Origin: Candidatus Moraniibacteriota bacterium
GTDB lineage: Bacteria > Patescibacteriota > Minisyncoccia > CAIUEV01 > JAHKAQ01
DNA: 64,000 nt
Direction of reading: 5' to 3'
Assembly: GCA_014729795.1 (NCBI GenBank)
Contig: WJJI01000014.1
Span: 757 to 64,756, forward strand
Every line of letters starts with the position of its first letter. The first letter of the stretch is position 1. The translations under genes were made by a program, and so were the position numbers. Below the pieces are notes generated by a model. The model was not told where the DNA came from and made no database searches. It was given only the letters and a program-made list of their open reading frames with translations. Positions 6,465 through 47,775 of this stretch are shown piece by piece.

Positions 6465-6818
6465 TTAGTTTGCCTTTTTTAGCGTTACTTTGTATTGAGG
6501 CTCGTATTGAGTGTTGTTTTTATCTTTAACTTCGATATTTTTACCTTGCATTAAATTATTGATGGCCAAGTCGCTGATCATTTGTTCCATGTCTTTAATT
6601 TCCTGATTAAGCTGTTCTAGTTTTTCATAGCGCTTACCCATGTTTTGCTGAACCATGGCCTCAAATTGCTTTTTTTTGTCTCGCAAATCTTTAATTTGTT
6701 CTTCGATTTCCTGATATTCCTGCTCTTGTTTAAGGCTGTCGGTATACTCTCTCCTAATCTCCTTTTTTTCTTGCTTGAGCTCTTGTAATTCATTAAAAAC
6801 GTCCTGGATGTTTTGCAT
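6465..6818 (-). CDS. Hypothetical coiled-coil protein (E/K/Q-rich)
   Basis: 117-aa ORF with strong heptad-like charged composition. It is the last gene of the minus-strand T4SS-like operon. Confidence 0.4.
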   Translation of the reverse strand: MQNIQDVFNELQELKQEKKEIRREYTDSLKQEQEYQEIEEQIKDLRDKKKQFEAMVQQNMGKRYEKLEQLNQEIKDMEQMISDLAINNLMQGKNIEVKDKNNTQYEPQYKVTLKKAN

Positions 6819-6924
6819 AGTTTGTGATTAATAATAGAAAAATAGCGTAAAGCTTTAATAACTAGACCAAATCAATCTCAAAAAATTAAGCCGATTCGGT
6901 TTTTATCCAACGTGTTAAGATTTT

Positions 6925-7398
6925 TTATCTAAAAATCATTAAAATATTATCTAACAAATACTTAACAGCTAAATTAACCGTTACGGATGTTTTGGTTTCA
7001 GGCTTAGTTAACTCAACCAGTTCTTTATTGATTATTCGCAACAGCAAATAACCGGTCACCAAAATTATAATGCCAATTAAAGCAGAAAAAATCGTGGTTT
7101 TTGCCTCCCCGGTTTTTGAGGTGTTCCCCGCTGCTGTTAAATACTGAAACCCGCCAATCATAAACATGGCCAAACCCAAAACACCGGCCACATAAACTAC
7201 GAATTTATAGATCGCATTAATGTATTCAACCGGATCATCGATTTTATCTGTAGCGCCGCCCAAGCCAAATTCAAAAGGAACTTCCAATTTCCAACCGCTT
7301 GCTTTCGCTTGCTCGGGAGTCAAAGGAAAACAGAAAAATAGAATTATTGTTAAAAAAGACAAACAACCCCTAATTAATAAATTCAAGCTCCGTTTCAT
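6925..7398 (-). CDS. VirB2/TrbC-like pilin candidate
   Basis: Signal peptide (…TPEQAKA), then two adjacent hydrophobic helices (FVVYVAGVLGLAMFMIGGFQYL and TIFSALIGIIILVTGYLLL) separated by a short polar loop. That is the hallmark layout of T4SS pilins. It sits immediately downstream of virB4. Confidence 0.4.
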   Translation of the reverse strand: MKRSLNLLIRGCLSFLTIILFFCFPLTPEQAKASGWKLEVPFEFGLGGATDKIDDPVEYINAIYKFVVYVAGVLGLAMFMIGGFQYLTAAGNTSKTGEAKTTIFSALIGIIILVTGYLLLRIINKELVELTKPETKTSVTVNLAVKYLLDNILMIFR

Positions 7399-7404
7399 GT
7401 TTTC

Positions 7405-9231
7405 TTATTTATAGTTTCTTTGTTCGCGCATTTCTTCTTTGGCTTTGGCAATTTCAATCAGCTGCTCGGGGTTAGAAGTGATAATTTGGTCTTCGGTATA
7501 AGATGCCACCACCTTAATAGCCGCGTGTTTTAAGCCGGCGAAGAAAATTCCTTCCCCAACGCTGCTTTCCAGCAAAAGAAACTTTTCCTGATCGGTTAAA
7601 TAAAAAGTTTCTGAAATAATATCAATCGAGGAAGGGGATTGCTTCAAGAGTAACTGTAAAGATGAATTAGAAATAATCGGTTTGCCGTAGCGGGAATTTA
7701 TAAAATCGCTAACATCCTGAGTAATCGTAGTAAGTCCAGTATAATATTTTCTACACCTTTTCGCAATCTGAAACATAAAATTTCCCGCATCTTCATGCAC
7801 CATCATGATCCAAGCCTCATCTACTACCAGCAATCTTTTTTTTAGTTCGCTTCTGATTTCATTCCAAATATATTGCAAAATTAAATACATTGCCACGGGT
7901 CTCAAGATTTCTTCCATGTCACGAATATTAAACACTATTAACTGATTATTTAAACGCACGTTGGTTTTTTTGTTTAAAAAACCGGCAAAAGTGCCCTGAG
8001 TGTATTTTTCCAAACGGATAGCCAGGTCTTCTCCACCGCTCATATTGCGCAACACATCATACAAAATCGATAAAGTGGGCGGATCCTTAATCGCGTTTTC
8101 AAAATTGGCGGAATCCGGGTAAATATCTTTAACCGCGTAAGCTTCGTGAATTGCTTTGTCTAAAATCGAATCTTCTTCAGGCGTGATATTACCCAAGACG
8201 ATTTTCATTAAACCCAAAATATTTGCGACATTGCCTCTTAAAACCTCTTCCGGATCGTCTCCCGGATCAAGTTTAGGCAGGTCGAACGGGTTGATATTGT
8301 TTGCCGAGTTCAGTGAAATTTTTACAAAAGTACCGCCCACGGCATCGCACAAGTGCTTATATTCGTTTTCCGGATCAATAACAATTACTTGGATGCCAAA
8401 CATCATGGAACGCAGAACTTCCAATTTGCAAGCATAAGACTTCCCTGAACCCGATTTAGCAAAAACCACCATGTTGGCGTTTTCCATTTTAAATCGATCA
8501 AAAAGAATTAAACTGTTGTTGTGTCTGTTTATTCCGTAAAGAATGCCTTCGCTGGAGCTTAAATTAGAAGAGACAAACGGAAAAGAGGTGGAAAGCGGCG
8601 ATGTGTTTAAGTTGGTAGACGCGTCAATCTCATCATTGGCCAATGGCAAGTTGGAGGCAAAAGCTTGCTCCATCCGAAAAGCCGCTGGTTTTAAATAGAT
8701 GAGCCGCGATTCCATCAAAGCTTCAATGTTGGATTCCAGCTCGTCAATTTCTTGACGGCTTGCCCCGTAAATAGTCAAATAAACCCCAAAACGGAAAAAT
8801 CTTTCCGTGCCCTGTTGTAATCGATCCCGCAATGCTTCAATGTCCTGGATTGAGGTTTCTAACAAAGGATCTCTGATCTTACCGGCTTGAGTCTCTAAAG
8901 ACATTCTTGATTGCACTTGAGTCGCGGTTTTACGAAGCGCTTTCATAATAACATGAGTTTCAATCGGATGAATAAACATGGTGATATCCATCATTTTATC
9001 CATATTTATAATTGGAGTGAGCCAGCCCGTTTGCAGGTAACGAGGAAAGGTCACCACGAAAAGGGTTTTAACGTATCGATCCCCAACCCTTAAAAAAGTG
9101 GGCGAAACCGTGAAAGAGGCCGGCGCGATTAAATCTTTGACCGTGGCCAGGCCTTTTTGGTAAAGTTGATCAGCTGTCATCTGTTTAGGGTCTTGCTTTT
9201 TTTTCTTTTTACTTTTGAAAATCGGCAACAT
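7405..9231 (-). CDS. VirB4/TrbE/CagE-family T4SS ATPase, C-terminal ATPase part
   Basis: Walker A FAKSGSGKSY, Walker B LLVVDEAW, and conserved VirB4 C-terminal blocks. Confidence 0.85.
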   Translation of the reverse strand: MLPIFKSKKKKKQDPKQMTADQLYQKGLATVKDLIAPASFTVSPTFLRVGDRYVKTLFVVTFPRYLQTGWLTPIINMDKMMDITMFIHPIETHVIMKALRKTATQVQSRMSLETQAGKIRDPLLETSIQDIEALRDRLQQGTERFFRFGVYLTIYGASRQEIDELESNIEALMESRLIYLKPAAFRMEQAFASNLPLANDEIDASTNLNTSPLSTSFPFVSSNLSSSEGILYGINRHNNSLILFDRFKMENANMVVFAKSGSGKSYACKLEVLRSMMFGIQVIVIDPENEYKHLCDAVGGTFVKISLNSANNINPFDLPKLDPGDDPEEVLRGNVANILGLMKIVLGNITPEEDSILDKAIHEAYAVKDIYPDSANFENAIKDPPTLSILYDVLRNMSGGEDLAIRLEKYTQGTFAGFLNKKTNVRLNNQLIVFNIRDMEEILRPVAMYLILQYIWNEIRSELKKRLLVVDEAWIMMVHEDAGNFMFQIAKRCRKYYTGLTTITQDVSDFINSRYGKPIISNSSLQLLLKQSPSSIDIISETFYLTDQEKFLLLESSVGEGIFFAGLKHAAIKVVASYTEDQIITSNPEQLIEIAKAKEEMREQRNYK

Positions 9232-9241
9232 GCTTTTTTAT

Positions 9242-9952
9242 TTATCCATATAAAGAGGTATTAACCGCTAATGATTCGACCGGAGCCATGCCCGTTCTTT
9301 CCACCGGATCTGGATTATAAAGAGAATAATACAACTCGATTAATTCCTGGGTGTTAAGGGGAATCATGCGCACGCCCGCACCGTTTAAACCGTATTGAAC
9401 ATGCTGGGCTCGTTGATAAATTTGTTCTTTGTAAACTTCAAAATTTTTCTTGGCTTGCTTTTGAACCGCTTGTCTGGGGCTTATAATCGCGTAAATTTTT
9501 TCAGTAATCGTGCTTTTTTGATTTTCGCTTGGAGAAAAAGGCACCACAATGTAAAAGTTCTTATTCACAATATCGCTCATAGTGCTAATATTGGTGATGT
9601 ATTTAATATAGTCTTGCATTTGCAATCGCAGTAATTCGTTAGGCTGTTCACGCGATAAGGTTTTTAAACTATTAACATAATTTGTTAAATTGACTTTTCG
9701 AGAACTGATGAAAATTTGAACCGGAAAATCAAGCGAATTAAGAAAATTTTGATAATAAGCCACAATCGCGTCTTGCTCTTCGCTTGATTTAAGATCAAAA
9801 TTAATCGAGGAAACCATCAAAACCATTCGCATACTGCCGTTTTTTAAGATCACTACCCCGTCTTTGATTTCTTCAATATCTAAAAATTGCTGGGTGCTTG
9901 CAGCTTTATTTTTCTGCTTAATAAGTTTTTTAGAATGAAGACTTTCCGGCAT
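9242..9952 (-). CDS. VirB4 N-terminal domain encoded as a separate ORF (split or frameshifted virB4)
   Basis: FLDIEEIKDGVVILKNGSMRMVLMVSSINFDLKSSEEQDAIVAYYQNFLNSLDFPVQIF matches the conserved N-terminal block of VirB4/TrsE/PrgJ-type proteins. The ORF stops 11 bp upstream of the ATPase ORF start and is in a different frame. Confidence 0.6.
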   Translation of the reverse strand: MPESLHSKKLIKQKNKAASTQQFLDIEEIKDGVVILKNGSMRMVLMVSSINFDLKSSEEQDAIVAYYQNFLNSLDFPVQIFISSRKVNLTNYVNSLKTLSREQPNELLRLQMQDYIKYITNISTMSDIVNKNFYIVVPFSPSENQKSTITEKIYAIISPRQAVQKQAKKNFEVYKEQIYQRAQHVQYGLNGAGVRMIPLNTQELIELYYSLYNPDPVERTGMAPVESLAVNTSLYG

Positions 9953-9976
9953 TTGTGTTTGTGTTTATTTTAGCAA

Positions 9977-10669
9977 TTAAACCAAAGCGCTAAAATCTAT
10001 ATTTTGATTGGTATTATAGCTTTTATTGGCAATTTGTTGGGGATCGGACCCGGGTTTTTTATTGGGATTGGCTGGTTGAGCGGCGTTTGGGGCGTTTGGC
10101 TGGGGTGATTGTTTCTGGCCGACTTGGTTTTTTTTGTTGGATGTTGGTTGCGCGACAACGCCTCTTATTAAAGGAGCATCAATCGACTGGCGTTGGTTGA
10201 AATCTTTAGGCAGATTGCTTTGCACCGGCCGGGTTTGTTTAACGGAAGTAAGCGGATTAGCTGGAAATCCTTGCTTTCCATTCGTGTCTAGCACCCGGGA
10301 AAGCCGCCTTACCTGATCCTCCGGAAATTGTTTTTTTACCAGCACCATCTCTTTTTTTTCTTTCTTGGGCTGATGTTTTTTAAATTGACTCTTGCCTCGT
10401 TTCCAAACATAGGTTCTGTTTTTTGTTAAATAGAGACCTAAATTGGCTAAAAAAACAATCATCGGTTGTCCATAAGGTCTGACAAAAGCAAGAATCGCCG
10501 ACAATCCAAGCACAATCACCGCGATAGCGACAAACAAAGCCATCTCTACAAATTGATAAACCACAAACAATATTCCGCAACCGCCCAATATCCAAAGAAA
10601 CTGCTTCCATGTTAGTGGCCCGACAATAGTATCCTCGATATCGACATTTTGGGGAACTTTAAAACGCAT
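9977..10669 (-). CDS. PrgI/VirB3-like small T4SS membrane protein with a Q/P/N-rich C-terminal tail
   Basis: The N-terminus MRFKVPQNVDIEDTIVGPLTWKQFLWILGG, followed by two TM helices, resembles PrgI-family proteins found upstream of VirB4 in monoderm T4SSs. The C-terminal ~100 aa are low-complexity. Confidence 0.45.
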   Translation of the reverse strand: MRFKVPQNVDIEDTIVGPLTWKQFLWILGGCGILFVVYQFVEMALFVAIAVIVLGLSAILAFVRPYGQPMIVFLANLGLYLTKNRTYVWKRGKSQFKKHQPKKEKKEMVLVKKQFPEDQVRRLSRVLDTNGKQGFPANPLTSVKQTRPVQSNLPKDFNQRQSIDAPLIRGVVAQPTSNKKNQVGQKQSPQPNAPNAAQPANPNKKPGSDPQQIANKSYNTNQNIDFSALV

Positions 10670-10830
10670 AGATTATCATTAGTTTAAATTACGAAATTCA
10701 AGGTTTTTCCTTTAAAACCCTGCCAAAAATGGAAACGTCCTTAGTCGCAAACCCTGTATCCTAATATCATAACCTTAAATTTAAACACTTAAGCTCTTAT
10801 ATTGTAACCGATAAACAAGAACTTTCAAAA

Positions 10831-12165
10831 TTATTCCCGGATGTCTTTTTCAAATATTACTTCGCCCCGGCTTTGAGATATGGTCAAAGGCGCGTTTTCA
10901 TCATAAGAAAGCACAATTTGAGCTAATTTGTTTAAATCCTCTTGGTCAATAGTTTGGACATTGGATGATTTGTGCAAAAAGTCTCGTTGATCTTCTTCGG
11001 TATGGTGAGAAACCCCGTAACGATTACGATAATCCAAAATCCAGTTTTGAATGGTTGGCGGGACTGTGCCGGGTTGGCCTAACCGGTAAAGTGGTTTTTT
11101 GGTGATAAGTTGATCAGCCACCTTGGGAATGGTTTTTAAAGCGTCCTTAATTGGCATCTTGACCAGGTCTTTTTCATTTGCTGGAGGAGCTTGCGCGACA
11201 GCGGGTTGGTTCAAGTCTTTTTTGGCTTGTTCTAAAGTCGGACTTTTTTTAACAACTGGTTTTGATTGAGCAACAGCAGATTCCGGACCGGGTTGCTGTT
11301 GTTGGGTCTGGACGCTTTGATTCTTTGAGTACCGGGGTTGAGCTGCTGGAGTTTGGGTTTGGGCAGGCGTCGGCGCTTGATCTTGTATTATACCCTGTAC
11401 CTCCTGTTGAACCGGCATTTTAAATTTCGGTTTGGCCGGAGGCTGGGGCTGAGGCACTGGTTTTGGCTGCCAAGCCGGTTTAATATCTTGAGGTTGGATT
11501 TCGGCTCTTTCCTCCTCTTGTTCTTCTGAGTCAATTTCTTGAGCAATCCTGGATAAGTTTTTAGCCAACTGCAGCGCTTCCTTAAGGGAGGGTAACTTAA
11601 GGTATTCAAATGCCAAAAAAAGTTTTTTCAAGGCTTGCTTATAGTCATCGCTTATTCCTTGAGCGTTGGGGCTGTTAGCTAAAAAACGAACAATCGCCAT
11701 TTCATCATCTTGTTTTTCCATGCCATAAGCTTCGGTGTAATGTCTTAACCAATTACCAATGGTAGCGTTTTTTTGAGCGCCATTCTTAAAAATCAATTGA
11801 TTATCAGCCAATTTTTGTTCATTTTCCAACAAAGCCCGCAATATTAATTGTAAATAGTTAAGCCAAGGAGCGCTTGGAATGCTCATGCGTAAGCGTTCCA
11901 ACAGCTTTTCCAAATCAGAGCTTTTATCCACCAAAGGCAACAAAAAATGATCGCGCAACATTTCCAGTTGCTCATTCTGGGTCAAAGTGGGTAATAAAAC
12001 CCATCTGATTTTCAGTTTAGCCTCTTCTATCCAGTCTGGATCCAAGTCTTTTAAATTTTCCGGATTTGAAAAAAACTCCTCCAGTTCCTGAGCCTCATCA
12101 AGGTTTTGACCCGACCAGGCTCGATATAACTTTAATTTTAATTGGTTAAAATCTTGTTTGTTCAT
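10831..12165 (-). CDS. Hypothetical protein with a central P/Q-rich linker (T4SS operon member)
   Basis: 444-aa ORF with an ordered N-terminal ~220 aa, a PQPQPPAKPK…QTQTPAAQP linker and an ordered C-terminal ~120 aa. No motif recognised. Confidence 0.5.
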   Translation of the reverse strand: MNKQDFNQLKLKLYRAWSGQNLDEAQELEEFFSNPENLKDLDPDWIEEAKLKIRWVLLPTLTQNEQLEMLRDHFLLPLVDKSSDLEKLLERLRMSIPSAPWLNYLQLILRALLENEQKLADNQLIFKNGAQKNATIGNWLRHYTEAYGMEKQDDEMAIVRFLANSPNAQGISDDYKQALKKLFLAFEYLKLPSLKEALQLAKNLSRIAQEIDSEEQEEERAEIQPQDIKPAWQPKPVPQPQPPAKPKFKMPVQQEVQGIIQDQAPTPAQTQTPAAQPRYSKNQSVQTQQQQPGPESAVAQSKPVVKKSPTLEQAKKDLNQPAVAQAPPANEKDLVKMPIKDALKTIPKVADQLITKKPLYRLGQPGTVPPTIQNWILDYRNRYGVSHHTEEDQRDFLHKSSNVQTIDQEDLNKLAQIVLSYDENAPLTISQSRGEVIFEKDIRE

Positions 12166-12196
12166 ATCAAATAATTGTTTATTGAAAAACTAATCA

Positions 12197-14734
12197 TCAA
12201 AATGGCCCGCTTCCGGATTTCTGCCGGCTTATTAAAACTTGATTAATGGTTTCGGTTATTTTCTTCACTTGATCCCTATCCAAATTGTTATCACTCTTCA
12301 AATCCCTGACTTTTTGCTTCATGGCGTTTGCCACCGCGTCAGAAATATTAAAAGCGCTGTTTTGAAAGCCTTGAGTATCCATTCTCTTAATAAGATGCTC
12401 AAAAACCACTCTATCATTTATATGTTGGGGTTTTAAGCTTCTGGCCAAACCTCGGTTGTTCATGCTTTGTATTTCACTTATTACAAACTCTTGTTGTTCT
12501 TTCGGCTCAGCCAAACGCAACTCTTTTGTTATAGGGTCAATTCGAGTTAACCCGGCATGATAAAAATCGTCATTGGCCATAGCCGTAGCGCTTAAATCGC
12601 TGGCAAGTCTTCTTTGCTGACGACTATCGCTAAATTCTGTTTCCAAAAATTTCTTTATGCCATCGGCGTCGTCTTTGCGGCCGAGAGCGCTTAAAAATGG
12701 CTTGATCGCGCCCATGCTCCAAGCCATACGCGTTAAGGCTTCCTTCTGATTTTCGTTGGTTGTGCCTTGATAAGCTTGAATCAATTGTTCAGGGGTGCGA
12801 ACCCCGCTTTGCTTGTATTTTTCTGTTTCGTTGGCCACCTCGACTTCTCTTGGTCGGTCGTAATTAACAGCTTCTCTAAAATGATTTTTCCAAACAGCTT
12901 TTCTGGCGTTTTTAATTGCTTCTTTGTCTTTGTTTTCATTAAGCTCGCCAGCTTCACTAAGTTTTTCCTTTAAAACTTGGTTGGCATGTTCTTTGTCAGT
13001 AATTCTAAGTTCGTTTCCTTGTTTTTGGCTTTTTTTGTCAGCAATTCTAAGTTCGTTTCCTTGTTTTTGGCTTTCGAGCTCTTGAATTTGTTTTTCAAGA
13101 GCTTCTCTGTCATTATTAGCTTTTTTTCTTGCTTTTTCATCTTCGATCTCCTTTATTTCTTTTTCCAGTTGTTCGTTTTCACCTTCGATCTCCTTTATTT
13201 CTTCCTCGTTGTTTTTTATTTCCTTATTCGCATTGTCTCTTTTTTGGTTTCTTTGGTTTTGTTCTATTTCCTCGGCTCTTTTTTTGGCGCCTCTATCAAA
13301 AAAGGCACTGGCTCCGGTAAGGGTCTTTTCAATAGCCTCCGTATCTTCTTCTCTCATCGCATGTTTGGTGCGATTTATTTTTTCCTTCACAAGCCTACCA
13401 GTATTAACGGGATCTAAAAAAGCCGAAGCTAATTTTAGGCCTCCGCCAACTTTTTGCAATCCTTTTCCCGCCAAATTTCTTACCTTTTTTTCACTTTCAG
13501 ACATTTTTTTGCCTTTATTCTCAATCACGCCTCCAAGTTTTCTCGCGGCTACTTTTGTCAGACCGGCCACTCCAAGTCCGGTCAACGCCGCTGCTCCCGC
13601 TGTTGAGAGCTTCATGGCCATGCCAGCGCCGGCTGCGCCCATAACCCCGGCCATGTAAACCGAGCCAATCAAAAGCACCATAGCGAATATTAAATAAATC
13701 CAGGTATTATAAGAATTAATATGATTTTCGGCTTTAGAAGTATGCTCTGCCCCATCAATTTGGCTGGCAATATTCGAGATGCTATCGCCTCCCTCCGAAG
13801 GAATGATGGTAAGAACCTCAGCGCTAAACCAAAGGAAAAAAAGCATCAAAGGGCCCATAAAAGCATATTTCAAAAAAGCGCTCCACCATTTACTGGCCAT
13901 GCCTTGGGTGTCGGGCAATATCATGCCCACGTAAGCCAAAGGAGAAACAACAATCAAAACCCAAATAGCCACGGTTCTAACAATTAAAAGCATGGCCACA
14001 GAACCAATTACAAAGGTGGCTAAAAACACAAACGCCACAGTTAAAACCGGGCCGATTGCTGTCGCAACAATTTCAACTAAATCGTCAGCGCTCAAAATTT
14101 TTAATATAATATCTGCCGTTGCCTTCCATTTCAAAGCCAATAAATTCCAGATCGTTTCTCTGAGTTTTGCTATGGGGTTTCCAAAAATGTTACCAAACAT
14201 GATAACATGGGTAAAATCCAAAACTATACCGGCAAACACCCGGCTAAAATTGGTTAAAAAAGCCAAGATCACCAATCGCACCAACAGCTTCTTGTAACTA
14301 TATTTTTCCACGCGAAAAATCGTACCCACTCCAATAAACAATAAAGCCACGATAAAGCCCATATCCGCGATTAAAGTCACTATGTTATGAGCCTTGATAA
14401 TGGTTTCATTGCTGGCAAAACCGCCGAGTTCCATATAAAAATCCGGATTGAAAAAGTCTTCAATCATATTAGAAGCAACAAGAAAGAAAATCCAAGCGAC
14501 AAACTGAAGCATTGTTGCTATAACTATCATAAAGCCCACCGGAAGCTTAATAAAAATAAAAGAAAAGAATTCCCAACCCGCATTGGTTAACCCTTTTAAA
14601 AGCTGATCTATCCAACCTGCTTGAGTCGGTTCTGGCGCCATCAGAAAAAAAACAACTGCAATTATTAACCCCAGCAAAGTTAAATATTTCCAATTATTTT
14701 TATTGCTTATTTTGTTTTTGATTTTTTCAATCAT
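12197..14734 (-). CDS. VirB6/TrbL-like polytopic T4SS membrane protein with a long C-terminal coiled-coil tail
   Basis: The N-terminal ~480 aa hold at least 8 TM helices. The C-terminal ~350 aa are charged coiled-coil with in-frame tandem duplications. Position and topology match VirB6-like proteins such as TcpH and PrgH. Confidence 0.4.
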   Translation of the reverse strand: MIEKIKNKISNKNNWKYLTLLGLIIAVVFFLMAPEPTQAGWIDQLLKGLTNAGWEFFSFIFIKLPVGFMIVIATMLQFVAWIFFLVASNMIEDFFNPDFYMELGGFASNETIIKAHNIVTLIADMGFIVALLFIGVGTIFRVEKYSYKKLLVRLVILAFLTNFSRVFAGIVLDFTHVIMFGNIFGNPIAKLRETIWNLLALKWKATADIILKILSADDLVEIVATAIGPVLTVAFVFLATFVIGSVAMLLIVRTVAIWVLIVVSPLAYVGMILPDTQGMASKWWSAFLKYAFMGPLMLFFLWFSAEVLTIIPSEGGDSISNIASQIDGAEHTSKAENHINSYNTWIYLIFAMVLLIGSVYMAGVMGAAGAGMAMKLSTAGAAALTGLGVAGLTKVAARKLGGVIENKGKKMSESEKKVRNLAGKGLQKVGGGLKLASAFLDPVNTGRLVKEKINRTKHAMREEDTEAIEKTLTGASAFFDRGAKKRAEEIEQNQRNQKRDNANKEIKNNEEEIKEIEGENEQLEKEIKEIEDEKARKKANNDREALEKQIQELESQKQGNELRIADKKSQKQGNELRITDKEHANQVLKEKLSEAGELNENKDKEAIKNARKAVWKNHFREAVNYDRPREVEVANETEKYKQSGVRTPEQLIQAYQGTTNENQKEALTRMAWSMGAIKPFLSALGRKDDADGIKKFLETEFSDSRQQRRLASDLSATAMANDDFYHAGLTRIDPITKELRLAEPKEQQEFVISEIQSMNNRGLARSLKPQHINDRVVFEHLIKRMDTQGFQNSAFNISDAVANAMKQKVRDLKSDNNLDRDQVKKITETINQVLISRQKSGSGPF
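12993..13202. repeat. Two pairs of in-frame 42-bp tandem duplications inside the VirB6-like gene
   Basis: The 40-nt unit ttgtcag(t/c)aattctaagttcgtttccttgtttttggcttt occurs at 12993-13032 and 13035-13074. The 20-nt unit cttcgatctcctttatttct occurs at 13141-13160 and 13183-13202. Both have a 42-bp period (14 aa). Confidence 0.8.
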
Positions 14735-14735
14735 T

Positions 14736-15236
14736 TTAATTGGCTTGTTTTAATTTGGCTCTTAAGCGTTGAATCTGGGCGGTTAATTTTTGCGACTTTT
14801 CCACAATTTCTTGAGACCGTTCAAGGTTTTTTTCAGATTGTTTTTTTGAAGAGCGCCAGGCAAGTAAAACCATAATTGTTGTAATCGGAGTAATGCCATC
14901 CAAAAAAGGAATAAAAGCCGCGATTAAATCTATTATTATGGGAAGAATTATCCTTAAAAATTTTTTCCAAAGATGCCTTCTCCAACCCATTTGCCACCAT
15001 ATCGGTATAGCAACAAACAGAAATTTTATTATCGGGGAAATACCCACATCCAAGGGGGGAGGCAAAAGGTCGGTAAATTCTGACATAACTGCGAACATCA
15101 AGGCGATTATAAAGATAGTATCGTTATACTGTTGGGCCTTGTCGAATAGTTTTTTCGCTTTTGCTTCAAGTTTCTTTTGAACCGATTGGTTACGCAATAT
15201 CAATTTCAGAATTCTTTGGTTTGTTGGGACAGCCAT
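14736..15236 (-). CDS. Small integral membrane protein (3 predicted TM helices), T4SS operon member
   Basis: 166-aa ORF with hydrophobic segments IFIIALMFAVM, ISPIIKFLFVAIPIWW and ILPIIIDLIAAFIPFL. Its stop abuts the VirB6-like start. Confidence 0.5.
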   Translation of the reverse strand: MAVPTNQRILKLILRNQSVQKKLEAKAKKLFDKAQQYNDTIFIIALMFAVMSEFTDLLPPPLDVGISPIIKFLFVAIPIWWQMGWRRHLWKKFLRIILPIIIDLIAAFIPFLDGITPITTIMVLLAWRSSKKQSEKNLERSQEIVEKSQKLTAQIQRLRAKLKQAN

Positions 15237-15261
15237 TTTTAAAATCAGCGCTTACTTTATT

Positions 15262-17292
15262 TTAAAAAATACTATTATTATCAACTTTTTGCCAGTTTCG
15301 CCCGTTTTGTGAAGTGGCTGAAAAAATTGTCCACACCGCTCCGTCAAAACCCGCGTACCACATTCGATATGGCCCTCCGGCTTCGCCGGCTAAACCGTCT
15401 TGGTCTTCAGTTACAACCATTGGGCCTACTACCTGAACATTATCCCCATCTCCTCTTTCGCCTACATCCAGTACGACCTCGCCCGGAGGAAAGGAACTCG
15501 GTGTTGGAGATTGGGTGTAAAAAATACGCCACGTTGCTCCATCATACCCACTATACCACATATGATACATTTTATAAATCGGTTGACAACGTTCAATGCA
15601 GCACTGTTCATTAAACTTTCTTTCTAAAATAACCGAAGGAGCGGATACATACACGCTGTCCTTGGCGTCTTTATTGGAGTTGGGTTCTAGCGCGATTTGA
15701 TGGCTGGAGCTGTCTGACCACCACAAAGGATCAACGCTCTTGGCGTGGTATATTCTCCAGGTCGCCCCATCAAATCCACTGTACCACATATGATACATTC
15801 GAAATGTTTCAAAACAAATCTCTACATATTGGTTGCAAATACATTGCGAATCAATATCTGCCACCATAGCCGGGCTGTCAACATGAACATGGGGCTTAGA
15901 AGCTTGATTTTCGCCACTTACGTCAATTTGCAAGCGCCCTCGACTTTTGTCCCAGGTATAAGTGTCCATGCTGGTGGCTCCAAAAATGCGCCAAGCTGCC
16001 CCCGCTTGCAGAGTATAACCGCTGTAATACATAATATAATCATTTTGAACCTCTGTCTCTCCTTGCTGCTGTCGCACTTCTCTTTGAGTAAAAACCCAGG
16101 GATTAGCTGTGTGGATAAAATCCAAGAATCCTTTCGGCGAATTGGGTACGCGGCCATTGGTGCCGACCAAACTCCGCTCGGGTACGCTGTTATCAACTTT
16201 GCTTAAATTATCGGCATTGCTTGCTTCAGCCATGTAAATCCTCCAGTTTGCGGAGTTATAACCGGGATACCAAAGCTTATACTGGTTGGAGTTTTGAGGA
16301 TATATAGCAGCCGGACCATCGGGGGAATTTACGTGTTCTCCGGCGGCCAAGCCGGTTGAGCCACCCCCTACATAGGTTTGGTCGCCTTTGCCTTTTGTTC
16401 CAAGCACGATCCTCCCGCCACCGGAACTGCTGTCGCTCCGATTGATGCCGCCATCGCCTGTTTCTTCTAAATCGCCGCCATTATCCAAGCCATCAAAAGG
16501 AGATTCGGAATAATCGGCCAAAAAATCAGAAGTATCGAGCTGATTTAAATCAACCTGATTGTCCTTATCCTGCCTGTCTGCGTCCGAATCATCAAAAACA
16601 CTGTCGGTTTCGCCTGAATCATTAGCTTGGTTTGTTTCCGGCTCGGTTTCGAGAGTGTCGGAATCACCGGATTCCCGGTTTTGTCCCAATTCCGGACTCG
16701 GCTGATTGCCGGTATCTTCAGTTTGGTTTGTTTTAAGCCCGGCAAGTTCTTCAACCGCCTGTTCTTTGATTTCCCGCGCCTGGGTCAAACAAAAGACATA
16801 TTGTTCATGATCGCCCAAGTTTTCTTCGATATAATCTTGTTGAATTAGCTGTTGATCTCCGTTTTTACGATTCTCGTAATCTTCGCACCAAGATTTTGCT
16901 TCAGGATTAAGCTCGCCCAAATATTTATTGACCACCGGAGCGCCGTTTACACAAGTAACCGTCAGTCGATCTCCTTGGGAATTACAGTACATTTCTCCCG
17001 GACTTTGACTGGAGCATTCTTGGCCATGACTCATCAAAATCCAATCGCCTTCTGGTCTCATGGCGACACAATCCGGTGTAAAATCAAGGGTTTGAGCTTG
17101 ATCTTGGTTTTCTAAACCGGTTGATTCGGCTTGAGATTTTTGCGTTAATCGGGTTTGCCGCCGCGCGGTTTCAGAAACTTGAGCCAGTCCAATTAACAAA
17201 GAACCCAAAATCACTAAAATTGAGGCTACGATAAAGAAATTTTTTCTTTTATAAATAAAATTAATCAAACGATCTGAAATATTTTGGCGCAT
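15262..17292 (-). CDS. Membrane-anchored or secreted large protein with an acidic low-complexity region and five tandem beta-propeller-like (Asp-box) repeats
   Basis: N-terminal TM/signal, then a D/E/S/N/G-rich stretch, then five repeats of about 55-70 aa sharing (Y/F)xM(W)YSG(F/Y)DGAxWRI(F/Y)xAxS followed by SxDxxxW-like Asp-boxes. Repeats 3 and 4 are nearly identical. Confidence 0.6.
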   Translation of the reverse strand: MRQNISDRLINFIYKRKNFFIVASILVILGSLLIGLAQVSETARRQTRLTQKSQAESTGLENQDQAQTLDFTPDCVAMRPEGDWILMSHGQECSSQSPGEMYCNSQGDRLTVTCVNGAPVVNKYLGELNPEAKSWCEDYENRKNGDQQLIQQDYIEENLGDHEQYVFCLTQAREIKEQAVEELAGLKTNQTEDTGNQPSPELGQNRESGDSDTLETEPETNQANDSGETDSVFDDSDADRQDKDNQVDLNQLDTSDFLADYSESPFDGLDNGGDLEETGDGGINRSDSSSGGGRIVLGTKGKGDQTYVGGGSTGLAAGEHVNSPDGPAAIYPQNSNQYKLWYPGYNSANWRIYMAEASNADNLSKVDNSVPERSLVGTNGRVPNSPKGFLDFIHTANPWVFTQREVRQQQGETEVQNDYIMYYSGYTLQAGAAWRIFGATSMDTYTWDKSRGRLQIDVSGENQASKPHVHVDSPAMVADIDSQCICNQYVEICFETFRMYHMWYSGFDGATWRIYHAKSVDPLWWSDSSSHQIALEPNSNKDAKDSVYVSAPSVILERKFNEQCCIERCQPIYKMYHMWYSGYDGATWRIFYTQSPTPSSFPPGEVVLDVGERGDGDNVQVVGPMVVTEDQDGLAGEAGGPYRMWYAGFDGAVWTIFSATSQNGRNWQKVDNNSIF

Positions 17293-17614: not shown

Positions 17615-18925
17615 TCAATATCTTATAAACAATGTCAAAGATAATATTATTAACAGAAAGGCTGTTGTTAATGGAATGTATTTTAAAAAAATATATTTAG
17701 CGATATTTGCTTTTTGATTTAAATAAACAAAAATAATAAATAATGGGATTAAAGTAAATAGAATATATCTAAAATCACCAACGCAAGAATAAGGATTAAA
17801 AATTCTCATTATAATTATTGAGAATAAAAATAAACAAATAAAAATTAAAAGACTTTTAATTTTATTAATACAAATTTTTTTAGATATGAATATATACAAT
17901 AAGGTTATCATATAAATTAATAATGCCAAGAAGTTAATTATTGAAATTATGGTGTGGTTTATTTTATCTCCTGGATTAAACCACTCAATACTTATGCTTG
18001 TTTTTATTAAAAAATTCCAAAAAAGTTTTGATTGTTCATTAGTATCCAAACCATTAGCTATTGGATGTTTTATAAAATTACGGAAATCAAAAACCAAATA
18101 ATTTATCGGTTCGTTTTTAAATTTTAATTCGTGAACGTTTTCTAATTCGTGAATATTTTCAATTAATGTTGTAAATTTTTTATTATCCGGGCGTATATAG
18201 TTTGGGATATAAAATAATAAAAATATCAAGAATATAATAAAAAGCGCTTTAATATTTTTTAAAACGAAAATATGTTTTTTGTTTTTCATAATAAAAATAA
18301 CTCCGATGAAAACAAAACTGACTAACCCGCTAAGTTTTGTTATTAGCGCTAAACCGGCAAACAATGAAGCTAAATATAAATATTGATTTTTTGAAAATTT
18401 ATTCCATAAAAGGGTTAAGTGTAAAGATACAATAACGAAAAAATATAATAAAAGATCATTACCAATTCTACCTGAATGTATTATTAAAGATGGCCAAAAA
18501 GAAATTAAAGCCAAAAATAGAATTAAATATTTTTTTGAGACTATGTATTGTTTTGCAATCTTTAAAGAGAAAAAAAGAACCCCAAGCATAAATAAGAGAG
18601 ATTGACATTGCAAACTCTTTAAAGCAATATCTTTATTATTATATATTAATAAGAACATTTTATATGTGATCGCAGAAATAATATAATATAGTGGAGGATG
18701 CCAACACTCCCAACATGCTTGTTTTTGTGGTAATTTATAATATTTTGAAATATATTCAATATATTCAATATGACCCCCAACGTCATGGGTATTAATTTGA
18801 TAAGGTGTCTGATTAATATAATGAATTCTGATTAAGATTGCCGATATAAAAATTAATAAAATAATTATTTTTTCTTTATAGGTAATAATTTTTTTAAGTT
18901 TGTTTATAAGTTTTGTTCGTATCAT
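17615..18925 (-). CDS. GT-C fold membrane glycosyltransferase (PMT_2/ArnT/GT39-83-like)
   Basis: Polytopic protein of 11 or more TM helices. The first extracytoplasmic loop carries DVGGHIEYIEYI…CWHPPLYY, typical of ArnT/PMT-family lipid-linked sugar transferases. The segment is extremely AT-rich. Confidence 0.5.
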   Translation of the reverse strand: MIRTKLINKLKKIITYKEKIIILLIFISAILIRIHYINQTPYQINTHDVGGHIEYIEYISKYYKLPQKQACWECWHPPLYYIISAITYKMFLLIYNNKDIALKSLQCQSLLFMLGVLFFSLKIAKQYIVSKKYLILFLALISFWPSLIIHSGRIGNDLLLYFFVIVSLHLTLLWNKFSKNQYLYLASLFAGLALITKLSGLVSFVFIGVIFIMKNKKHIFVLKNIKALFIIFLIFLLFYIPNYIRPDNKKFTTLIENIHELENVHELKFKNEPINYLVFDFRNFIKHPIANGLDTNEQSKLFWNFLIKTSISIEWFNPGDKINHTIISIINFLALLIYMITLLYIFISKKICINKIKSLLIFICLFLFSIIIMRIFNPYSCVGDFRYILFTLIPLFIIFVYLNQKANIAKYIFLKYIPLTTAFLLIILSLTLFIRY

Positions 18926-25591: not shown

Positions 25592-25998
25592 ATTTTCGGC
25601 CGGCCTAGAGGAAAGTCCGGACATAATTAAGGGGTAGTGGGTAACGCCCACCTCTTTTGAGGGCAACTTTAAAAGACGGGAAAGTGCCGCAGAGACTATA
25701 CTATCCAGTCGGCTTAAGCTGACTGGAAAAAGGTGAAAAGTAAACCGGTGTTTTAGTGGTTATTACCTTAAAGCTACGGTTTTCGCCCGCCGGCAACGGT
25801 GACGCGTGGCAAACCCTACCTTATGCAAGGCCGTGTCCGGTTCCAAGCCTGGTTAAACAGTAACGCTTTTTAACCAAGCTGTTTAGCTGGGCTGGGACCG
25901 GAAGAGCCGCTTTGAGCTTTGTGGCAACGCAAAGCCTAGATAAATAGCCACGATTCAATTTTTGAATACAGAATCCGGCTTATAGTTTTGGCCGATGT
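25592..25998 (+). ncRNA. rnpB: RNase P RNA (bacterial type A)
   Basis: P4 strands GAGGAAAGUCCGGAC and ACAGAAUCCGGCUUAU are present. P1 pairs UCGGCC at the 5' end with GGCCGA at the 3' end. GGUAACGCC (P10/11-like) and other conserved blocks are also present. Confidence 0.85.
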
Positions 25999-26281: not shown

Positions 26282-28570
26282 GTGAATATAGAAAAAATAA
26301 AAACAATCGCTACTTCAGCAACCCTGATTATTATAGGAATTTTTTTTGTATTACCTGCTTCCGCCTCGGCTCTGACCTCTTTTTCTTTTGATGTGCCGGA
26401 AGGGCAGGGCGCCTCCAATAATGAATTTTATACCGGACGCTGCGTGCGAGCCGATGTATTACTAGATACAGATGGACACGATGCTGGTGGAGCCGATTTG
26501 ATAATCAACTATTCGAATACTGACATTCAAATCGTGGAAAGCGACTGCGCGACTCCGGCAACCACCATTTACGAAGGAGCCTCGGAAGCCTCAGGTGATG
26601 AACTTTTTGATAACCATATTTTTAATAATGTTAATCCCTCAAGCATAACCTTGGGAGCCTATAATAATTTTGGCAATGTTTATAATGGCTCTGGAGTTTA
26701 CGCTCATTTTTACTTTTTAGTTTTATCTCAATCTGGTAGTTATGATCTGGATTTTGATTTTACTCTCGGCAACACCCTGGATTGCAACCTATCCGAAGCT
26801 GGAACAGGCGCTGACATCCTTGAGCAGGCAAATGACTATACTTTAAATTTAGTTCCTGATCCGATTGGGGACCTGCCCTACATAACCGATCAAACACCAG
26901 CCGACGGAGCGACAGATGTTGCTGTAACTTCCAATGTTTCTTTAAGAATCAATGATGATGCTTCAGGCGTAGATATCGCTAATACAACCATCACCTTAGA
27001 TGGGATTAATTATACAAGCAGTGGCCCGAATTCTTTTAGTTATACCTGTCATACTACTAATTTTAATCGAGTAGATTATTGTGACATTACTATAAACCCC
27101 TCAAGTAATTTCAATTACGGCGCTCTTTATCTGGTTGATGTGGACACCTACGACCTTGGGGAACCCACGGCAAATCATCTAAGCGTGAGCTATTCTTTTA
27201 CCACTGAAACAGATAACGACTCGCCATATATTTATAACCTTAATCCCGGGTCCGGGGCAACAAATGTTGCTACAAACAGCAATATAAGTTTCAATATTGG
27301 CGATATCGCTAACCCTGGTGGTTATCCCGGTTTAGGAGTTGATTTGTCTAGTATTCAAGTGGTTGTTTCCGCTCCAGGCTGGGGCAGTCAAACCTATATC
27401 AACGGAGATTCCGAATTTAACGCTATTGCTAACAGCGCCAACGACTATGGAGATGTATATGATTATAGTATTGAAATTAATCCGGAAAGCGATTTTCCTC
27501 AAAACACCATAGTAAGCATTCAGGTCGTTGCGGATGATTTGAGTTCACCCGCCAATGTTTTAAACACTTCCTATTCTTTCACCACCACTGATACCGATCA
27601 ACCAATTTGTTCTAACTTCTCCCCGGTAAAAAACTCCGCCGCTATGAGTTCCAATGGTAATATAATCTTTGAATGCACCGACAGCGGCAGCGGCATCAAT
27701 ATTGATAGCTTATCCGTGCTCTTAGACGGTAATGTTTACACCTCTAACGGAGCAAATACTTTTGATTACTCCGGGGATGCTTCTGCCTATACAATTACCA
27801 TAGATCCCGTAAACGAAATAGTCAGTCAGTATGCTTTTGAAGTAGTGATTGACGTTAATGATTTTAACAACAATTCGGCGCGTTATTCATATGGTCTAGC
27901 TGCCGGCACCGGAGCTGCAACTTGCGAAGAGTGCGAAGAATGCGAAGAATGCGATGATTGCGATCAAGAATGCGAGCCAGAAACCGAAACGATCATTAAG
28001 TACATTGAAAAAGAATCAACTGATTATAAAGATGGAAATTGCCAAGACTTAGAATCATCAGACACCAGCCCAAGCCAAAACCTTACAGAGTCCGCATCCG
28101 AAAAATCCATTTTTATAAAAACAACCGATCCAACATCATTTACTTTAGAAAAAATCAATGAGATGTTAGTTGGCGGTGAAAATATCGAGGTTAATTCAAC
28201 GGAAGATCAAGTAATTTTTACTGGCACAGCATCGCCTGACAGCTCTTTTACACTAATGATAGAATCTCTGGCAACAAAAAAACAGGGGATTGGTTCTACC
28301 TTGATTTTAAACGGTATGGCCGATCAAACCGGCAACTGGAAGATAGCTATAAAAAACGTATTCACCCAAGGCATGCATGATGTTTCTTTGATTTTAAACA
28401 ACCGGGAAGATGGCAGTCAATTAGATAAAAAAAGGCTTAGTCAATTTGAAGTCAAAACAAAAAAAGAAATATGCTGGCTTTGTATCGTTATTATTTTTCT
28501 AGTTCTTTTAAACATTATTCAGTTTTTAACCAGAAACTCAAAAAAAAATAAAAATGTCGCAAATCAATAA
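26282..28570 (+). CDS. Large cell-surface protein with SbsA/Ig-like repeat domains, a CEECEEC cysteine-acidic repeat and a C-terminal TM anchor
   Basis: Signal peptide. Several ~90-aa repeats of the form ITDQTPADGATDVAVTSNVSLRINDDASGVDIANTTITLDGINYTSSG, which are SbsA-type Ig-like domains. CEECEECEECDDCDQECE at residues ~548-565. A hydrophobic C-terminal anchor (ICWLCIVIIFLVLLNIIQFL). Confidence 0.6.
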   Translation: MNIEKIKTIATSATLIIIGIFFVLPASASALTSFSFDVPEGQGASNNEFYTGRCVRADVLLDTDGHDAGGADLIINYSNTDIQIVESDCATPATTIYEGASEASGDELFDNHIFNNVNPSSITLGAYNNFGNVYNGSGVYAHFYFLVLSQSGSYDLDFDFTLGNTLDCNLSEAGTGADILEQANDYTLNLVPDPIGDLPYITDQTPADGATDVAVTSNVSLRINDDASGVDIANTTITLDGINYTSSGPNSFSYTCHTTNFNRVDYCDITINPSSNFNYGALYLVDVDTYDLGEPTANHLSVSYSFTTETDNDSPYIYNLNPGSGATNVATNSNISFNIGDIANPGGYPGLGVDLSSIQVVVSAPGWGSQTYINGDSEFNAIANSANDYGDVYDYSIEINPESDFPQNTIVSIQVVADDLSSPANVLNTSYSFTTTDTDQPICSNFSPVKNSAAMSSNGNIIFECTDSGSGINIDSLSVLLDGNVYTSNGANTFDYSGDASAYTITIDPVNEIVSQYAFEVVIDVNDFNNNSARYSYGLAAGTGAATCEECEECEECDDCDQECEPETETIIKYIEKESTDYKDGNCQDLESSDTSPSQNLTESASEKSIFIKTTDPTSFTLEKINEMLVGGENIEVNSTEDQVIFTGTASPDSSFTLMIESLATKKQGIGSTLILNGMADQTGNWKIAIKNVFTQGMHDVSLILNNREDGSQLDKKRLSQFEVKTKKEICWLCIVIIFLVLLNIIQFLTRNSKKNKNVANQ
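27923..27976 (+). repeat. 9-bp tandem repeat (tgcgaagar x3 plus degenerate copies) encoding the Cys-Glu-Glu repeat
   Basis: tgcgaagag tgcgaagaa tgcgaagaa tgcgatgat tgcgatcaagaa tgcgag, read directly from the sequence. Confidence 0.85.
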
Positions 28571-28572
28571 AC

Positions 28573-29259
28573 ATGTTATTCATAAAAAATAACCCGGTAA
28601 AAAAAATTTTTATATTTTTTTTGTTAATCATTACCTTTTTAGGTGTCTTTTACTATCTTTACACTTTTAAAAAAGACCAAAATCAAAAACAAACAAATAA
28701 AACCCAAGCAAAAATTATTATCAAAGGCTCAATTATTGATTTGCTAAATCAAAAACCATTAGAAAACGTTAGAGTTCAGAGCAAAAAAATTAATTTTTTA
28801 ACCTCTCAAACAGATAAAAATGGAGAATTCGAGATAAAAACCTACCCTAACGATATTTTATTGATTTCCGGATTAGATTTTTATGAACAAATCGAAATTC
28901 CAATTGAAAACAGAAAAAATATCCAAATAGCGCTAAACTCAAAAGCGCTGGCTTTTTTTAGAAAAATTGAAAAAGCCGAGGAGCAGCGGCAATATCGAAA
29001 AATATATCCTTTTATAGTAAATTCAATAGATGAAAATCATTATTTAGCCAAAAAGAATAACTGGCGTGATAACATAGTGCAAAAAGGTTTCTTAGGACCA
29101 AAAACAGTTAAAATAGATCGAGAAGTTCAAATAAAAGAAAATCAATACCAAACAAGCATTCGGTATGTTTTTCAGAAAGAGAATCAAGATTTAATCAAAA
29201 AATATTCTTTTGTTTTTAATAACGATCTAAAATATTTAGATCAAACTATTGATAACTAA
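28573..29259 (+). CDS. Membrane-anchored hypothetical protein with a CarboxypepD_reg-like beta-sandwich segment
   Basis: N-terminal TM helix. The segment IIKGSIIDLLNQKPLENVRVQS…TDKNGEFEI resembles carboxypeptidase-regulatory-like domains. The start lies 3 nt after the upstream stop. Confidence 0.4.
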   Translation: MLFIKNNPVKKIFIFFLLIITFLGVFYYLYTFKKDQNQKQTNKTQAKIIIKGSIIDLLNQKPLENVRVQSKKINFLTSQTDKNGEFEIKTYPNDILLISGLDFYEQIEIPIENRKNIQIALNSKALAFFRKIEKAEEQRQYRKIYPFIVNSIDENHYLAKKNNWRDNIVQKGFLGPKTVKIDREVQIKENQYQTSIRYVFQKENQDLIKKYSFVFNNDLKYLDQTIDN

Positions 29260-29876: not shown

Positions 29877-30040
29877 TTGTGTGGTTAAATTATCAGCAAC
29901 TACAACCAGCCCCCAAGGCCATCTGTTTATTTAATAATATTATAATTTATTTTATAATTATTGTCCAAATCCATAGGCCTGTTCCTAAAAACAATTATCG
30001 GTTATAATGCAAACAATCATTAAGCCAACAAACAAAAAAA

Positions 30041-31597: not shown

Positions 31598-31606
31598 ATA
31601 TTTTAG

Positions 31607-39942: not shown

Positions 39943-39956
39943 TAATTGAGGAATCG

Positions 39957-44483: not shown

Positions 44484-44571
44484 TTGGAAACTTTTAGCGA
44501 TTATTTTCCCGGCATCATAAAACCCTCCTATTAAATTAACAGAATGAGTTAGAGTTTCAAGCTTTAATTTT

Positions 44572-46752: not shown

Positions 46753-46796
46753 AAAAAAATGATTTAATATTTCGTTTCGGATCCGAAATTAGTTTT

Positions 46797-47771: not shown

Positions 47772-47775
47772 AAAG

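Follow-up and report, generated by a model that had tools for sequence, protein, structure and literature searches.

A probable relaxase-free type IV secretion system of the Patescibacteria type among the housekeeping genes of a Candidatus Moranbacteria genome

What does a bacterium do with a type IV secretion system (T4SS) that has neither a relaxase nor a coupling protein at its side? The question is raised by a gene cluster at positions 6465-17292 of a 64-kb stretch of DNA, here called the window, from contig WJJI01000014.1 of a Candidatus Moraniibacteriota bacterium (assembly GCA_014729795.1). The window makes up almost all of the 65.8-kb source contig, and our statements of absence for this DNA hold for the window; three of its products are 100% identical to NCBI proteins of a Candidatus Moranbacteria metagenome-assembled genome (MAG; locus tags GF332_01570 and GF332_01585). 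The cluster encodes a VirB4 of the mating-pair-formation class FATA (MPF-FATA), a TrsD-like protein, PrgI, a VirB6-like protein and a pilin, with no adjacent relaxase or type IV coupling protein (T4CP), and these are features of the T4SS clade described for Patescibacteria. In both identity and general role it is very probably a chromosomal, relaxase-free T4SS of that type, working as a non-conjugative, contact-dependent machine for interaction with a host. On this reading it descends from Gram-positive (MPF-FATA) machinery for conjugation but has lost its link to any mobile element. It is a further example of an already published architecture, not a new system.

The nine open reading frames (ORFs) of the cluster are all intact and all on the minus strand (Table 1), and the ORF listing agrees exactly with the nine co-directional genes that an earlier, sequence-only reading of this DNA had placed here. 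In order of rising coordinates they are spaced by 106, 6, 10, 24, 161, 31, 1 and 25 bp, so the tight packing and the 161-bp gap of that reading stand, but not its claim that only one gap is large, since a second one above 100 bp lies at 6819-6924. It had also given eight products for the nine genes, leaving the 236-aa TrsD-like protein unnamed. Searches of the nine proteins against the Pfam and NCBIfam profiles left four of them (444, 166, 676 and 117 aa) without a family match. Judged from its sequence, the promoter-like site within the 161-bp gap may be an internal promoter for prgI, trsD, virB4 and the pilin gene; promoter and terminator scans of the region returned sites no commoner than in shuffled sequence.

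Table 1. Features of the cluster, with positions counted from the first letter of the window
Feature	Length	Position	Strand	Evidence
Coiled-coil protein	117 aa	6465..6818	minus	generic coiled-coil matches
VirB2-type T4SS pilin precursor	157 aa	6925..7398	minus	PF18895
VirB4 ATPase	608 aa	7405..9231	minus	NF045971, PF19044, Walker motifs
TrsD-like protein	236 aa	9242..9952	minus	NCBIfam
PrgI/VirB3-like protein	230 aa	9977..10669	minus	PF12666
Promoter-like site TTGAAA-16 nt-TACAAT		10828-10801, in the 161-bp gap 10670..10830	minus	motif scan
p444, soluble protein	444 aa	10831..12165	minus	domain hidden Markov model (HMM), structure model
Extended VirB6/TrbL-like protein	845 aa	12197..14734	minus	PF04610, orthologues, hydropathy
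Membrane protein	166 aa	14736..15236	minus	hydropathy, iterated HMM
Surface protein with predicted beta-propeller	676 aa	15262..17292	minus	hydropathy, AlphaFold2, Foldseek

VirB4 scored 360 bits against NF045971, the CD1110 family of the Clostridioides element CTn2 (cut-off 325), and 98.8 bits against PF19044, and both of its Walker motifs, A (AKSGSGKS, at residue 258) and B (LLVVDE, at residue 467), are intact. The longest ORF gives 608 aa; the NCBI record, with 591 aa, starts 17 codons downstream, 9180-9231 being the extra stretch. A homologue search returned at least 8000 proteins, all with E<=1e-20. Identity among the best 120 matches is 64-100%; most of these carry no source name, and those that do are assigned to Moranbacteria, Parcubacteria or Patescibacteria, apart from two called just 'bacterium'. 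The PrgI/VirB3-like protein also exceeded its curated cut-off (PF12666, 37.3 bits versus 27), and both calls of the sequence-only reading are thereby upheld. It has an N-terminal hydrophobic hairpin followed by a tail rich in Q, K, P and N (residues 95-230), as judged by hydropathy and composition.

The 236-aa protein encoded 10 bp upstream of virB4 matched NF041427 (TrsD/TraD) at E 2.7e-7, which is under the curated cut-off. It also aligned with positions 91-248 of the VirB4 model from the Mycoplasma integrative and conjugative element (ICE) at E 7.5e-8, and with positions 2-121 of the CD1110 VirB4 model at E 1e-6, whereas the 608-aa VirB4 spans positions 169-728 of the latter. Since the smaller protein fits the N-terminal part of the VirB4 model and the larger one the remainder, the N-terminal domain of VirB4 is here a separate gene. 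TrsD is the T4SS component retrieved most often near virB4 in Patescibacteria (PMC12102498).

The pilin gene starts 6 bp after virB4. Its product reached 35.9 bits against PF18895 (T4SS_pilin; cut-off 26.6), bearing out the earlier call of a two-helix VirB2-like pilin, and its hydropathy shows a signal peptide (...AKA/SG, hydrophobic at residues 7-25) followed by two transmembrane helices, 66-84 and 102-120, around a QYLTAAGNTS loop. It further matched NF045849, the pilin-like protein of the Mycoplasma ICE (Mbov_0395), at E 5e-6, below the cut-off of that model. Because VirB4 and TrsD match the model of the neighbouring Mbov_0397, small pilin-like proteins beside virB4 may, to judge from these sequence matches, exist in some MPF-FATA systems after all, although the literature generally states that they do not.

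The 845-aa protein has about eight hydrophobic segments in residues 15-364, an E/K-rich coiled coil at about 450-600 and then a hydrophilic C-terminal domain, and this combination of segments with a long hydrophilic extension makes it an 'extended VirB6'. Among its orthologues, 8 of 35 matched TrbL or TrbL_4, at best with 1.2e-5 and 3.6e-6, and no other family was in contention, so that the VirB6-like assignment of the sequence-only reading is supported by orthologues and membrane topology together. Residues N162-F163-S164, D173, R253, W284 and G294 are invariant. The coiled-coil region also contains a 42-nt tandem duplication in perfect register (12989-13072, 95% identical) that encodes KKSQKQGNELRI(A/T)D two times and looks like a recent in-frame expansion.

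Does anything around the cluster point to a mobile element? We scanned 49 ORFs of 123-762 aa outside the cluster against Pfam, and none encodes a VirD4/TcpA, relaxase, VirB11, integrase or transposase anywhere in the window. VirB4 is the sole TraG/VirB4-type P-loop protein of the window, and phmmer detected no paralogue of any of the nine cluster proteins there. The absence of coupling protein, relaxase, VirB11 and integrase, first claimed for about 10 kb on either side, thus extends over the whole 64 kb. Neither a prominent hairpin nor an inverted repeat resembling an origin of transfer (oriT) stands out in the window, as had been said before, and no att-like direct repeats flank the cluster. 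The only tRNAs of the window lie at 34.6 and 41.7 kb, the nearest 17 kb from the cluster, and the GC content of the cluster resembles that of its surroundings, with no compositional break. The neighbours are mostly housekeeping or cell-surface genes (six of the 49 scanned ORFs have no family), and the Pfam scans bear out the housekeeping flanks described earlier. VirB4, VirB3-like, VirB6-like and VirB2-like components between housekeeping genes, with no mobility gene in the window, support the earlier structural reading of a chromosomal T4SS.

We compared the cluster with 80 loci from contigs representing one genome per species, nearly all of them Moranbacteria MAGs, in which VirB4 is 63-84% identical, and determined gene content by tblastn and iterated HMM searches. 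A block virB6-p444-prgI-trsD-virB4 is conserved, with its whole order kept in 43 of the 80 loci, which answers positively the call for a synteny check in related genomes. TrsD is present in 78 loci at 46-75% identity, and prgI in 71, directly upstream of trsD-virB4. VirB6 was found in 43, upstream of p444-prgI-trsD-virB4; a good number of loci are cut short on that side, and in one subgroup a pair of pilin genes stands there instead. Orthologues of the window's pilin follow virB4 in L002 and L003 (55-61% identity), two of the three closest loci, L001-L003. The housekeeping flanks vary from locus to locus: L003 (84%) is the closest relative, yet its thrS, together with the UPF0004/radical-SAM gene next to it, is found on the opposite side of the cluster. 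Such identity and synteny of VirB4 over 80 loci with differing flanks argue for vertical inheritance under selection, and not for a mobile or decaying element.

A hidden T4CP was sought in the same loci among ORFs of at least 380 aa with a Walker A motif within 10 kb on either side of virB4. The scan, which took representatives from each of the four largest groups and from one of the smaller ones, revealed no T4CP-like ATPase; the scanned groups proved to be IF-2, ComM, UvrD/PcrA, Wzy and a 936-aa family without a Pfam match. One small unscanned group is DnaA-like by its N-terminal sequence.

The comparison also uncovered variants of the pilin genes. In one Moranbacteria subgroup (L006-L009 and L016), proteins of 759-841 aa encoded downstream of virB4 carry an N-terminal T4SS-pilin domain, and the only one scanned (L006:8354-10675) joins a pilin domain (PF18895, E 9e-5) to a C-terminal SLT lytic transglycosylase (PF01464, E 7.5e-11), a VirB2-VirB1 fusion. 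In a second layout, also from Moranbacteria, a pair of pilin genes directly precedes prgI-trsD-virB4, and one of the pair contains two tandem pilin domains (for example L034:7736-8548); this layout occurs in L011, L012, L015, L017, L018, L020-L022, L024-L026, L030-L034, L038, L039, L041, L045, L046 and L049, and in these loci VirB6 and p444 were not detected within 10 kb upstream. About 20 loci, most of them with this second layout, carry genes for ComM (Mg-chelatase-like) and for a helicase of the UvrD/PcrA type at a distance of a few kb from virB4, on its downstream side.

What, then, are the proteins that belong to no family? The 444-aa protein, p444, which the sequence-only reading had called a P/Q-linker protein, has no transmembrane segment; its helical N-terminal domain (1-215) is joined through a disordered Q/P/A-rich linker (about 222-330) to a C-terminal domain of about 105 aa (336-440), which is conserved. 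The C-terminal domain has invariant W375 and Y379 and the consensus ...EPVRPSLxNWLxxYRxELGxGxH...FLFxSxNGKxLSxEER..., and the N-terminal half holds a diverged copy of it (hhalign 96%, E 3e-9). No Pfam, PDB-sequence or structural match was found for the 105-aa domain. With this C-terminal domain as query, an exhaustive search of 1.84 billion representatives yielded 715 proteins at E<=1e-3 and, with the limit tightened to E<=1e-10, 194, and in many of them two stretches were matched; the full-length query gave 2 matches because of the low-complexity linker. From these sequence searches, p444 represents a widespread, unnamed family. The gene of one distant member likewise directly precedes those of PrgI, a TraC-like protein and VirB4, and distant orthologues have an extra disordered tail after the conserved domain. 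The AlphaFold2 model, made from 72 sequences, gave both helical domains a pLDDT (per-residue confidence score) above 90 and showed the linker as disordered; the predicted fold is helical and not NTF2. p444 was detected in 53 of the 80 loci, always encoded between virB6 and prgI.

The 166-aa protein has three to four transmembrane segments and a C-terminal coiled coil, and its family, which has no Pfam or NCBIfam match, was found by iterated HMM in 68 of the 80 loci, with the conserved motifs A-L-L-K-D-L-L-D and G-L-N-F-L-P-I-E-T. In the window and in L001-L003 its gene precedes virB6, and the slot after virB4 is taken by the pilin gene; in the remaining 64 loci with the family, the gene comes immediately after virB4. 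A drift of the HMM onto pilins was considered and rejected on reading the sequences and the alignment, as the family has its own motifs and no signal peptide. In L036 and L048 the family forms the N-terminal part of proteins of about 950-1050 aa.

Across the 80 loci, VirB6, the p444 family, PrgI, TrsD, VirB4 and the 166-aa family are the constant components, whereas the propeller, the number and position of pilins and the pilin-SLT fusions are lineage-specific. The two conserved unnamed families are candidates for the missing substrate recruitment and VirB8-like scaffolding. A bolder proposal is that both are unrecognised core subunits peculiar to the Patescibacteria T4SS and that p444 replaces the coupling protein as substrate receptor or gate, possibly serving import of host nucleic acid or export of effectors; we regard it as doubtful, but if true it would explain how a Gram-positive-type T4SS works without VirD4.

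At the upstream end of the cluster, the 676-aa protein has a membrane anchor (19-37) and then a Cys-containing segment leading into a D/E/S-rich low-complexity linker (about 40-290), and its residues 283-676 are predicted to form a five-bladed beta-propeller of the fold of glycoside hydrolase (GH) families GH130, GH43 and GH32. The AlphaFold2 model (pLDDT 85, predicted template-modelling score 0.89, 20 strands) was compared with the PDB by Foldseek; GH130, GH32, GH43 and GH62 propellers came out best with a probability of 1.00 and E down to 2e-9, at a template-modelling (TM) score of just about 0.5. Homologues of the protein carry PF04041 (GH130), and the window protein itself falls below every Pfam and NCBIfam cut-off. 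The blade repeat is visible in the DNA as repeat family D1. Fold model, Foldseek and PF04041 homologues thus bear out the propeller that had been suspected from the letters. The gene is confined to the window and L001-L003. At the other end, the gene of the 117-aa protein lies 106 bp from the pilin gene and is conserved solely in L003 (57% identity); its product has no transmembrane segment and only generic coiled-coil matches in Pfam and NCBIfam.

How such a machine might work can be sketched as follows. The extended VirB6-like protein, the PrgI/VirB3-like protein and the 166-aa protein would form a membrane platform, and VirB4 with the separate TrsD would dock on PrgI and supply energy from ATP for assembly of the channel and for extraction of the VirB2-type pilin from the membrane. 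The extracted pilin would then polymerise into a pilus or a tube-like conduit, with p444 acting on the cytoplasmic side as adaptor or scaffold. In the sub-lineage that has it, the membrane-anchored GH130/GH43-like propeller on its long acidic stalk could bind or trim glycans of the partner envelope. The whole would carry out contact-dependent exchange with a host bacterium, that is, export of effectors and/or uptake of host macromolecules, and not conjugative DNA transfer. Gene content, families, conservation, synteny and the lack of mobility genes were computed; pilus, substrate and direction of transport we infer, as we do the assembly roles, for which the roles of the same families in studied T4SSs served as the guide. 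Published proposals run along similar lines, naming effector delivery, uptake of nucleotides (PMC11665869) or nucleic acids and, in a 2026 preprint, tube-like structures into the host (bioRxiv 10.64898/2026.06.21.733656). The function assigned earlier, DNA uptake or release or interaction with a partner cell, matches this speculation, but nothing in the sequence demonstrates it.

Several observations weigh against this reading of the cluster. The window's VirB6-like protein reached only E 0.003 with PF04610 (TrbL), below the Pfam cut-off. Neither a VirB8-like (NTF2) protein nor a cell-wall hydrolase of the VirB1 type (SLT/CHAP) was recognised among the nine cluster proteins with Pfam and NCBIfam. 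The propeller and the 117-aa protein, limited to the nearest relatives, may not be part of the machine. Position, conservation and fold are the only guides to the roles proposed here for p444, for the 166-aa protein and for the propeller. A relaxase or T4CP may lie in another part of this genome: VirD4-like matches occur in most Patescibacteria genomes, mostly far from virB4 (PMC12102498). A PNAS perspective calls the role of the Patescibacteria T4SS 'completely unknown' (PMC11665869).

Of other explanations, the one that survives best, and still an improbable one, is a machine for import of DNA (or RNA) like Helicobacter ComB or archaeal Ced, which would feed a cell unable to make nucleotides. 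Like ComB, the cluster is independent of T4CP and relaxase, and acquisition of nucleotides through the T4SS (PMC11665869) and feeding on host RNA through tube-like structures (bioRxiv 10.64898/2026.06.21.733656) have been put forward in published speculation; uptake is, however, conjecture for every Patescibacterium. The weak similarity of VirB4 to CedB (NCBIfam E 7.5e-13) amounts to 47.9 bits against a cut-off of 700, and that to CedD to 26.7 bits against 600, and no homologues of CedA, ComB7-10, VirB9 or VirB10 were found among the nine cluster proteins with Pfam and NCBIfam. The ComM and UvrD/PcrA genes near virB4 in about 20 related Moranbacteria loci might seem to favour import, but they are general housekeeping genes and absent beside the window's cluster, in which no DNA-binding or nuclease component was recognised.

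Less probable again is a pilus for adhesion or attachment only, in which VirB4 polymerises the pilin, a propeller lectin attaches to the host and nothing is translocated. The pilin gene directly after virB4, the surface propeller of a glycan-binding type in the same operon and the lack of a substrate receptor (T4CP) would all suit it. On the other hand, the polytopic VirB6-like channel protein and the cytoplasmic p444 are conserved although mere adhesion would not obviously require them, the propeller occurs in no more than four genomes, and Patescibacteria already have type IV pili for attachment and motility (PMC12857230, PMC11665869). Very unlikely, finally, is the mating-pair-formation module of an ICE or chromosomal conjugation system with relaxase, T4CP and oriT elsewhere in the genome, or a decaying remnant of one: VirB4 does score best with conjugative families (CD1110 of CTn2, the Mycoplasma ICE, TraC), T4CP genes often lie far from virB4 and only one contig of the genome is covered, but 64 kb hold no relaxase, T4CP, integrase, tRNA target or att repeat and show no shift in GC, none of the nine ORFs is broken, VirB4 keeps its synteny in 80 species-level genomes whose flanks differ, and just 109 relaxases, 15 of them near virB4, are known from 3,035 Patescibacteria genomes (PMC12102498).

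Among the products of the surrounding genes with a family match are an epimerase, an amidase (PF01425), a D-Ala-D-Ala carboxypeptidase, glycosyltransferases and a Wzz-like protein; threonyl- and methionyl-tRNA synthetases, a UPF0004/radical-SAM protein (MiaB/RimO-like), an isopentenyl transferase (PF01715) and a TatD-family protein; a tetrahydrofolate dehydrogenase/cyclohydrolase, a 1-deoxy-D-xylulose 5-phosphate synthase and proteins of the IspD and LytB families; and protein O-mannosyltransferase-like proteins, a histidine kinase and several surface proteins. Two stretches are markedly AT-rich, with a GC of 0.27-0.29 where the window has about 0.38. One, at 17615-18925 directly upstream of the cluster, codes for a polytopic membrane protein of 436 aa without a Pfam match; the other, at about 44000-48000, covers the gene of a histidine kinase with seven transmembrane segments (44572-46752) and a radical-SAM-like gene (46797-47771). 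A bacterial class A RNase P RNA (146 bits) lies at 25597-25998 between a sugar-transferase gene and a group of surface-protein genes. That group, at 26282-32560, comprises a Big_5 Ig-like protein of 762 aa, a CarboxypepD_reg-like protein, one with a dockerin that is encoded on the opposite strand, one of 518 aa without a family and one with a WxL-interacting peptidoglycan-binding domain, all predicted surface proteins that may be adhesins of an epibiont. At 37872-40901, a BcrAD/BadFG-type ATPase and two DUF2229/HGD-D-like proteins form an adjacent trio resembling 2-hydroxyacyl-CoA dehydratase activators, which is unexpected for a genome of reduced metabolism.

How does the cluster compare with known systems? 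Coupling protein and relaxase are likewise missing from Helicobacter pylori ComB (DNA uptake), Bordetella Ptl and Brucella VirB, which are precedents for a non-conjugative function; these, however, are diderm MPF-T systems with an outer-membrane core of VirB7, VirB9 and VirB10, none of which is present here. With the Mycoplasma ICE (Mbov_0395, Mbov_0397) the cluster shares a monoderm or wall-less lineage and a small two-helix protein beside virB4, and the corresponding models were matched by the pilin (NF045849, E 5e-6) and by VirB4 and TrsD (NF045975, E 1.4e-86 and 7.5e-8), under the equivalog cut-offs (26 versus 40 bits and 291 versus 590 bits). Unlike the cluster, the Mycoplasma system belongs to a mobile ICE, which brings along a DDE transposase and transfer functions of its own.

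The MPF-FATA conjugative systems (C. difficile CTn2, E. faecalis pCF10 Prg/Pcf, S. aureus pGO1 Trs) are closer in their parts: a VirB4 at the level of CD1110, PrgI, TrsD and a VirB6/PrgH-type protein are common to both, as is a monoderm architecture with no VirB7, VirB9 or VirB10. The cluster differs from them in having no relaxase, T4CP, oriT, VirB1-type hydrolase or PrgB-type adhesin, in its housekeeping chromosomal context and vertical conservation, and in its VirB2-type pilin, which is generally lacking there (PMC12102498, PMC12857230).

The closest counterparts are found within the Patescibacteria. VirB4 occurs in 2,417 of 3,035 genomes, forming a clade nested in MPF-FATA, with TrsD, PrgI/VirB3, VirB6 and VirB2-like pilins nearby (Quinonero-Coronel et al. 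2025, Microbial Genomics, PMC12102498), and the window's cluster shares with this clade the PF18895 VirB2-like pilin, the chromosomal location and the lack of a nearby relaxase or T4CP. Because the same architecture had been described in 2023 (PMC10633639) and 2025 (PMC12102498), and a 2025 FEMS review (PMC12857230) treats Patescibacteria T4SSs as a recognised group, the sequence-only reading cannot be followed in calling this an under-described system, and a further Moranbacteria example leaves the overall picture unchanged.

In Southlakia epibionticum, the cluster SEML1_0006-0019 has been described as Gram-positive-like; its pilins, however, are essential, and neither a coupling protein nor a relaxase was recognisable (Wang et al. 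2023, Cell, PMC10633639). Where S. epibionticum has a six-gene pilin array, the window has a single pilin gene; it has no lysozyme or peptidase beside virB4 and no recognised NTF2-like (VirB8-like) gene, its cluster does not adjoin dnaA in the window, and it adds the GH130/GH43-like propeller and a 166-aa gene upstream of virB6. The slot between virB6 and prgI, taken here by p444, holds SEML1_0011 (essential) and SEML1_0012 (NTF2-like) in S. epibionticum, and p444 is possibly homologous to SEML1_0011. What the cluster has in common with that of strain ML1 is the order of its core: a VirB6-like protein, one or more unannotated proteins, PrgI, a TrsD-like protein and VirB4. In S. epibionticum the T4SS genes and pilin array are essential for epibiotic growth by transposon sequencing and comEC is dispensable (PMC10633639, PMC12857230), tubular structures reach the host in another cultured member (bioRxiv 10.64898/2026.06.21.733656), and the Patescibacteria T4SS is the only one reported to be essential for the growth of the bacterium that carries it.

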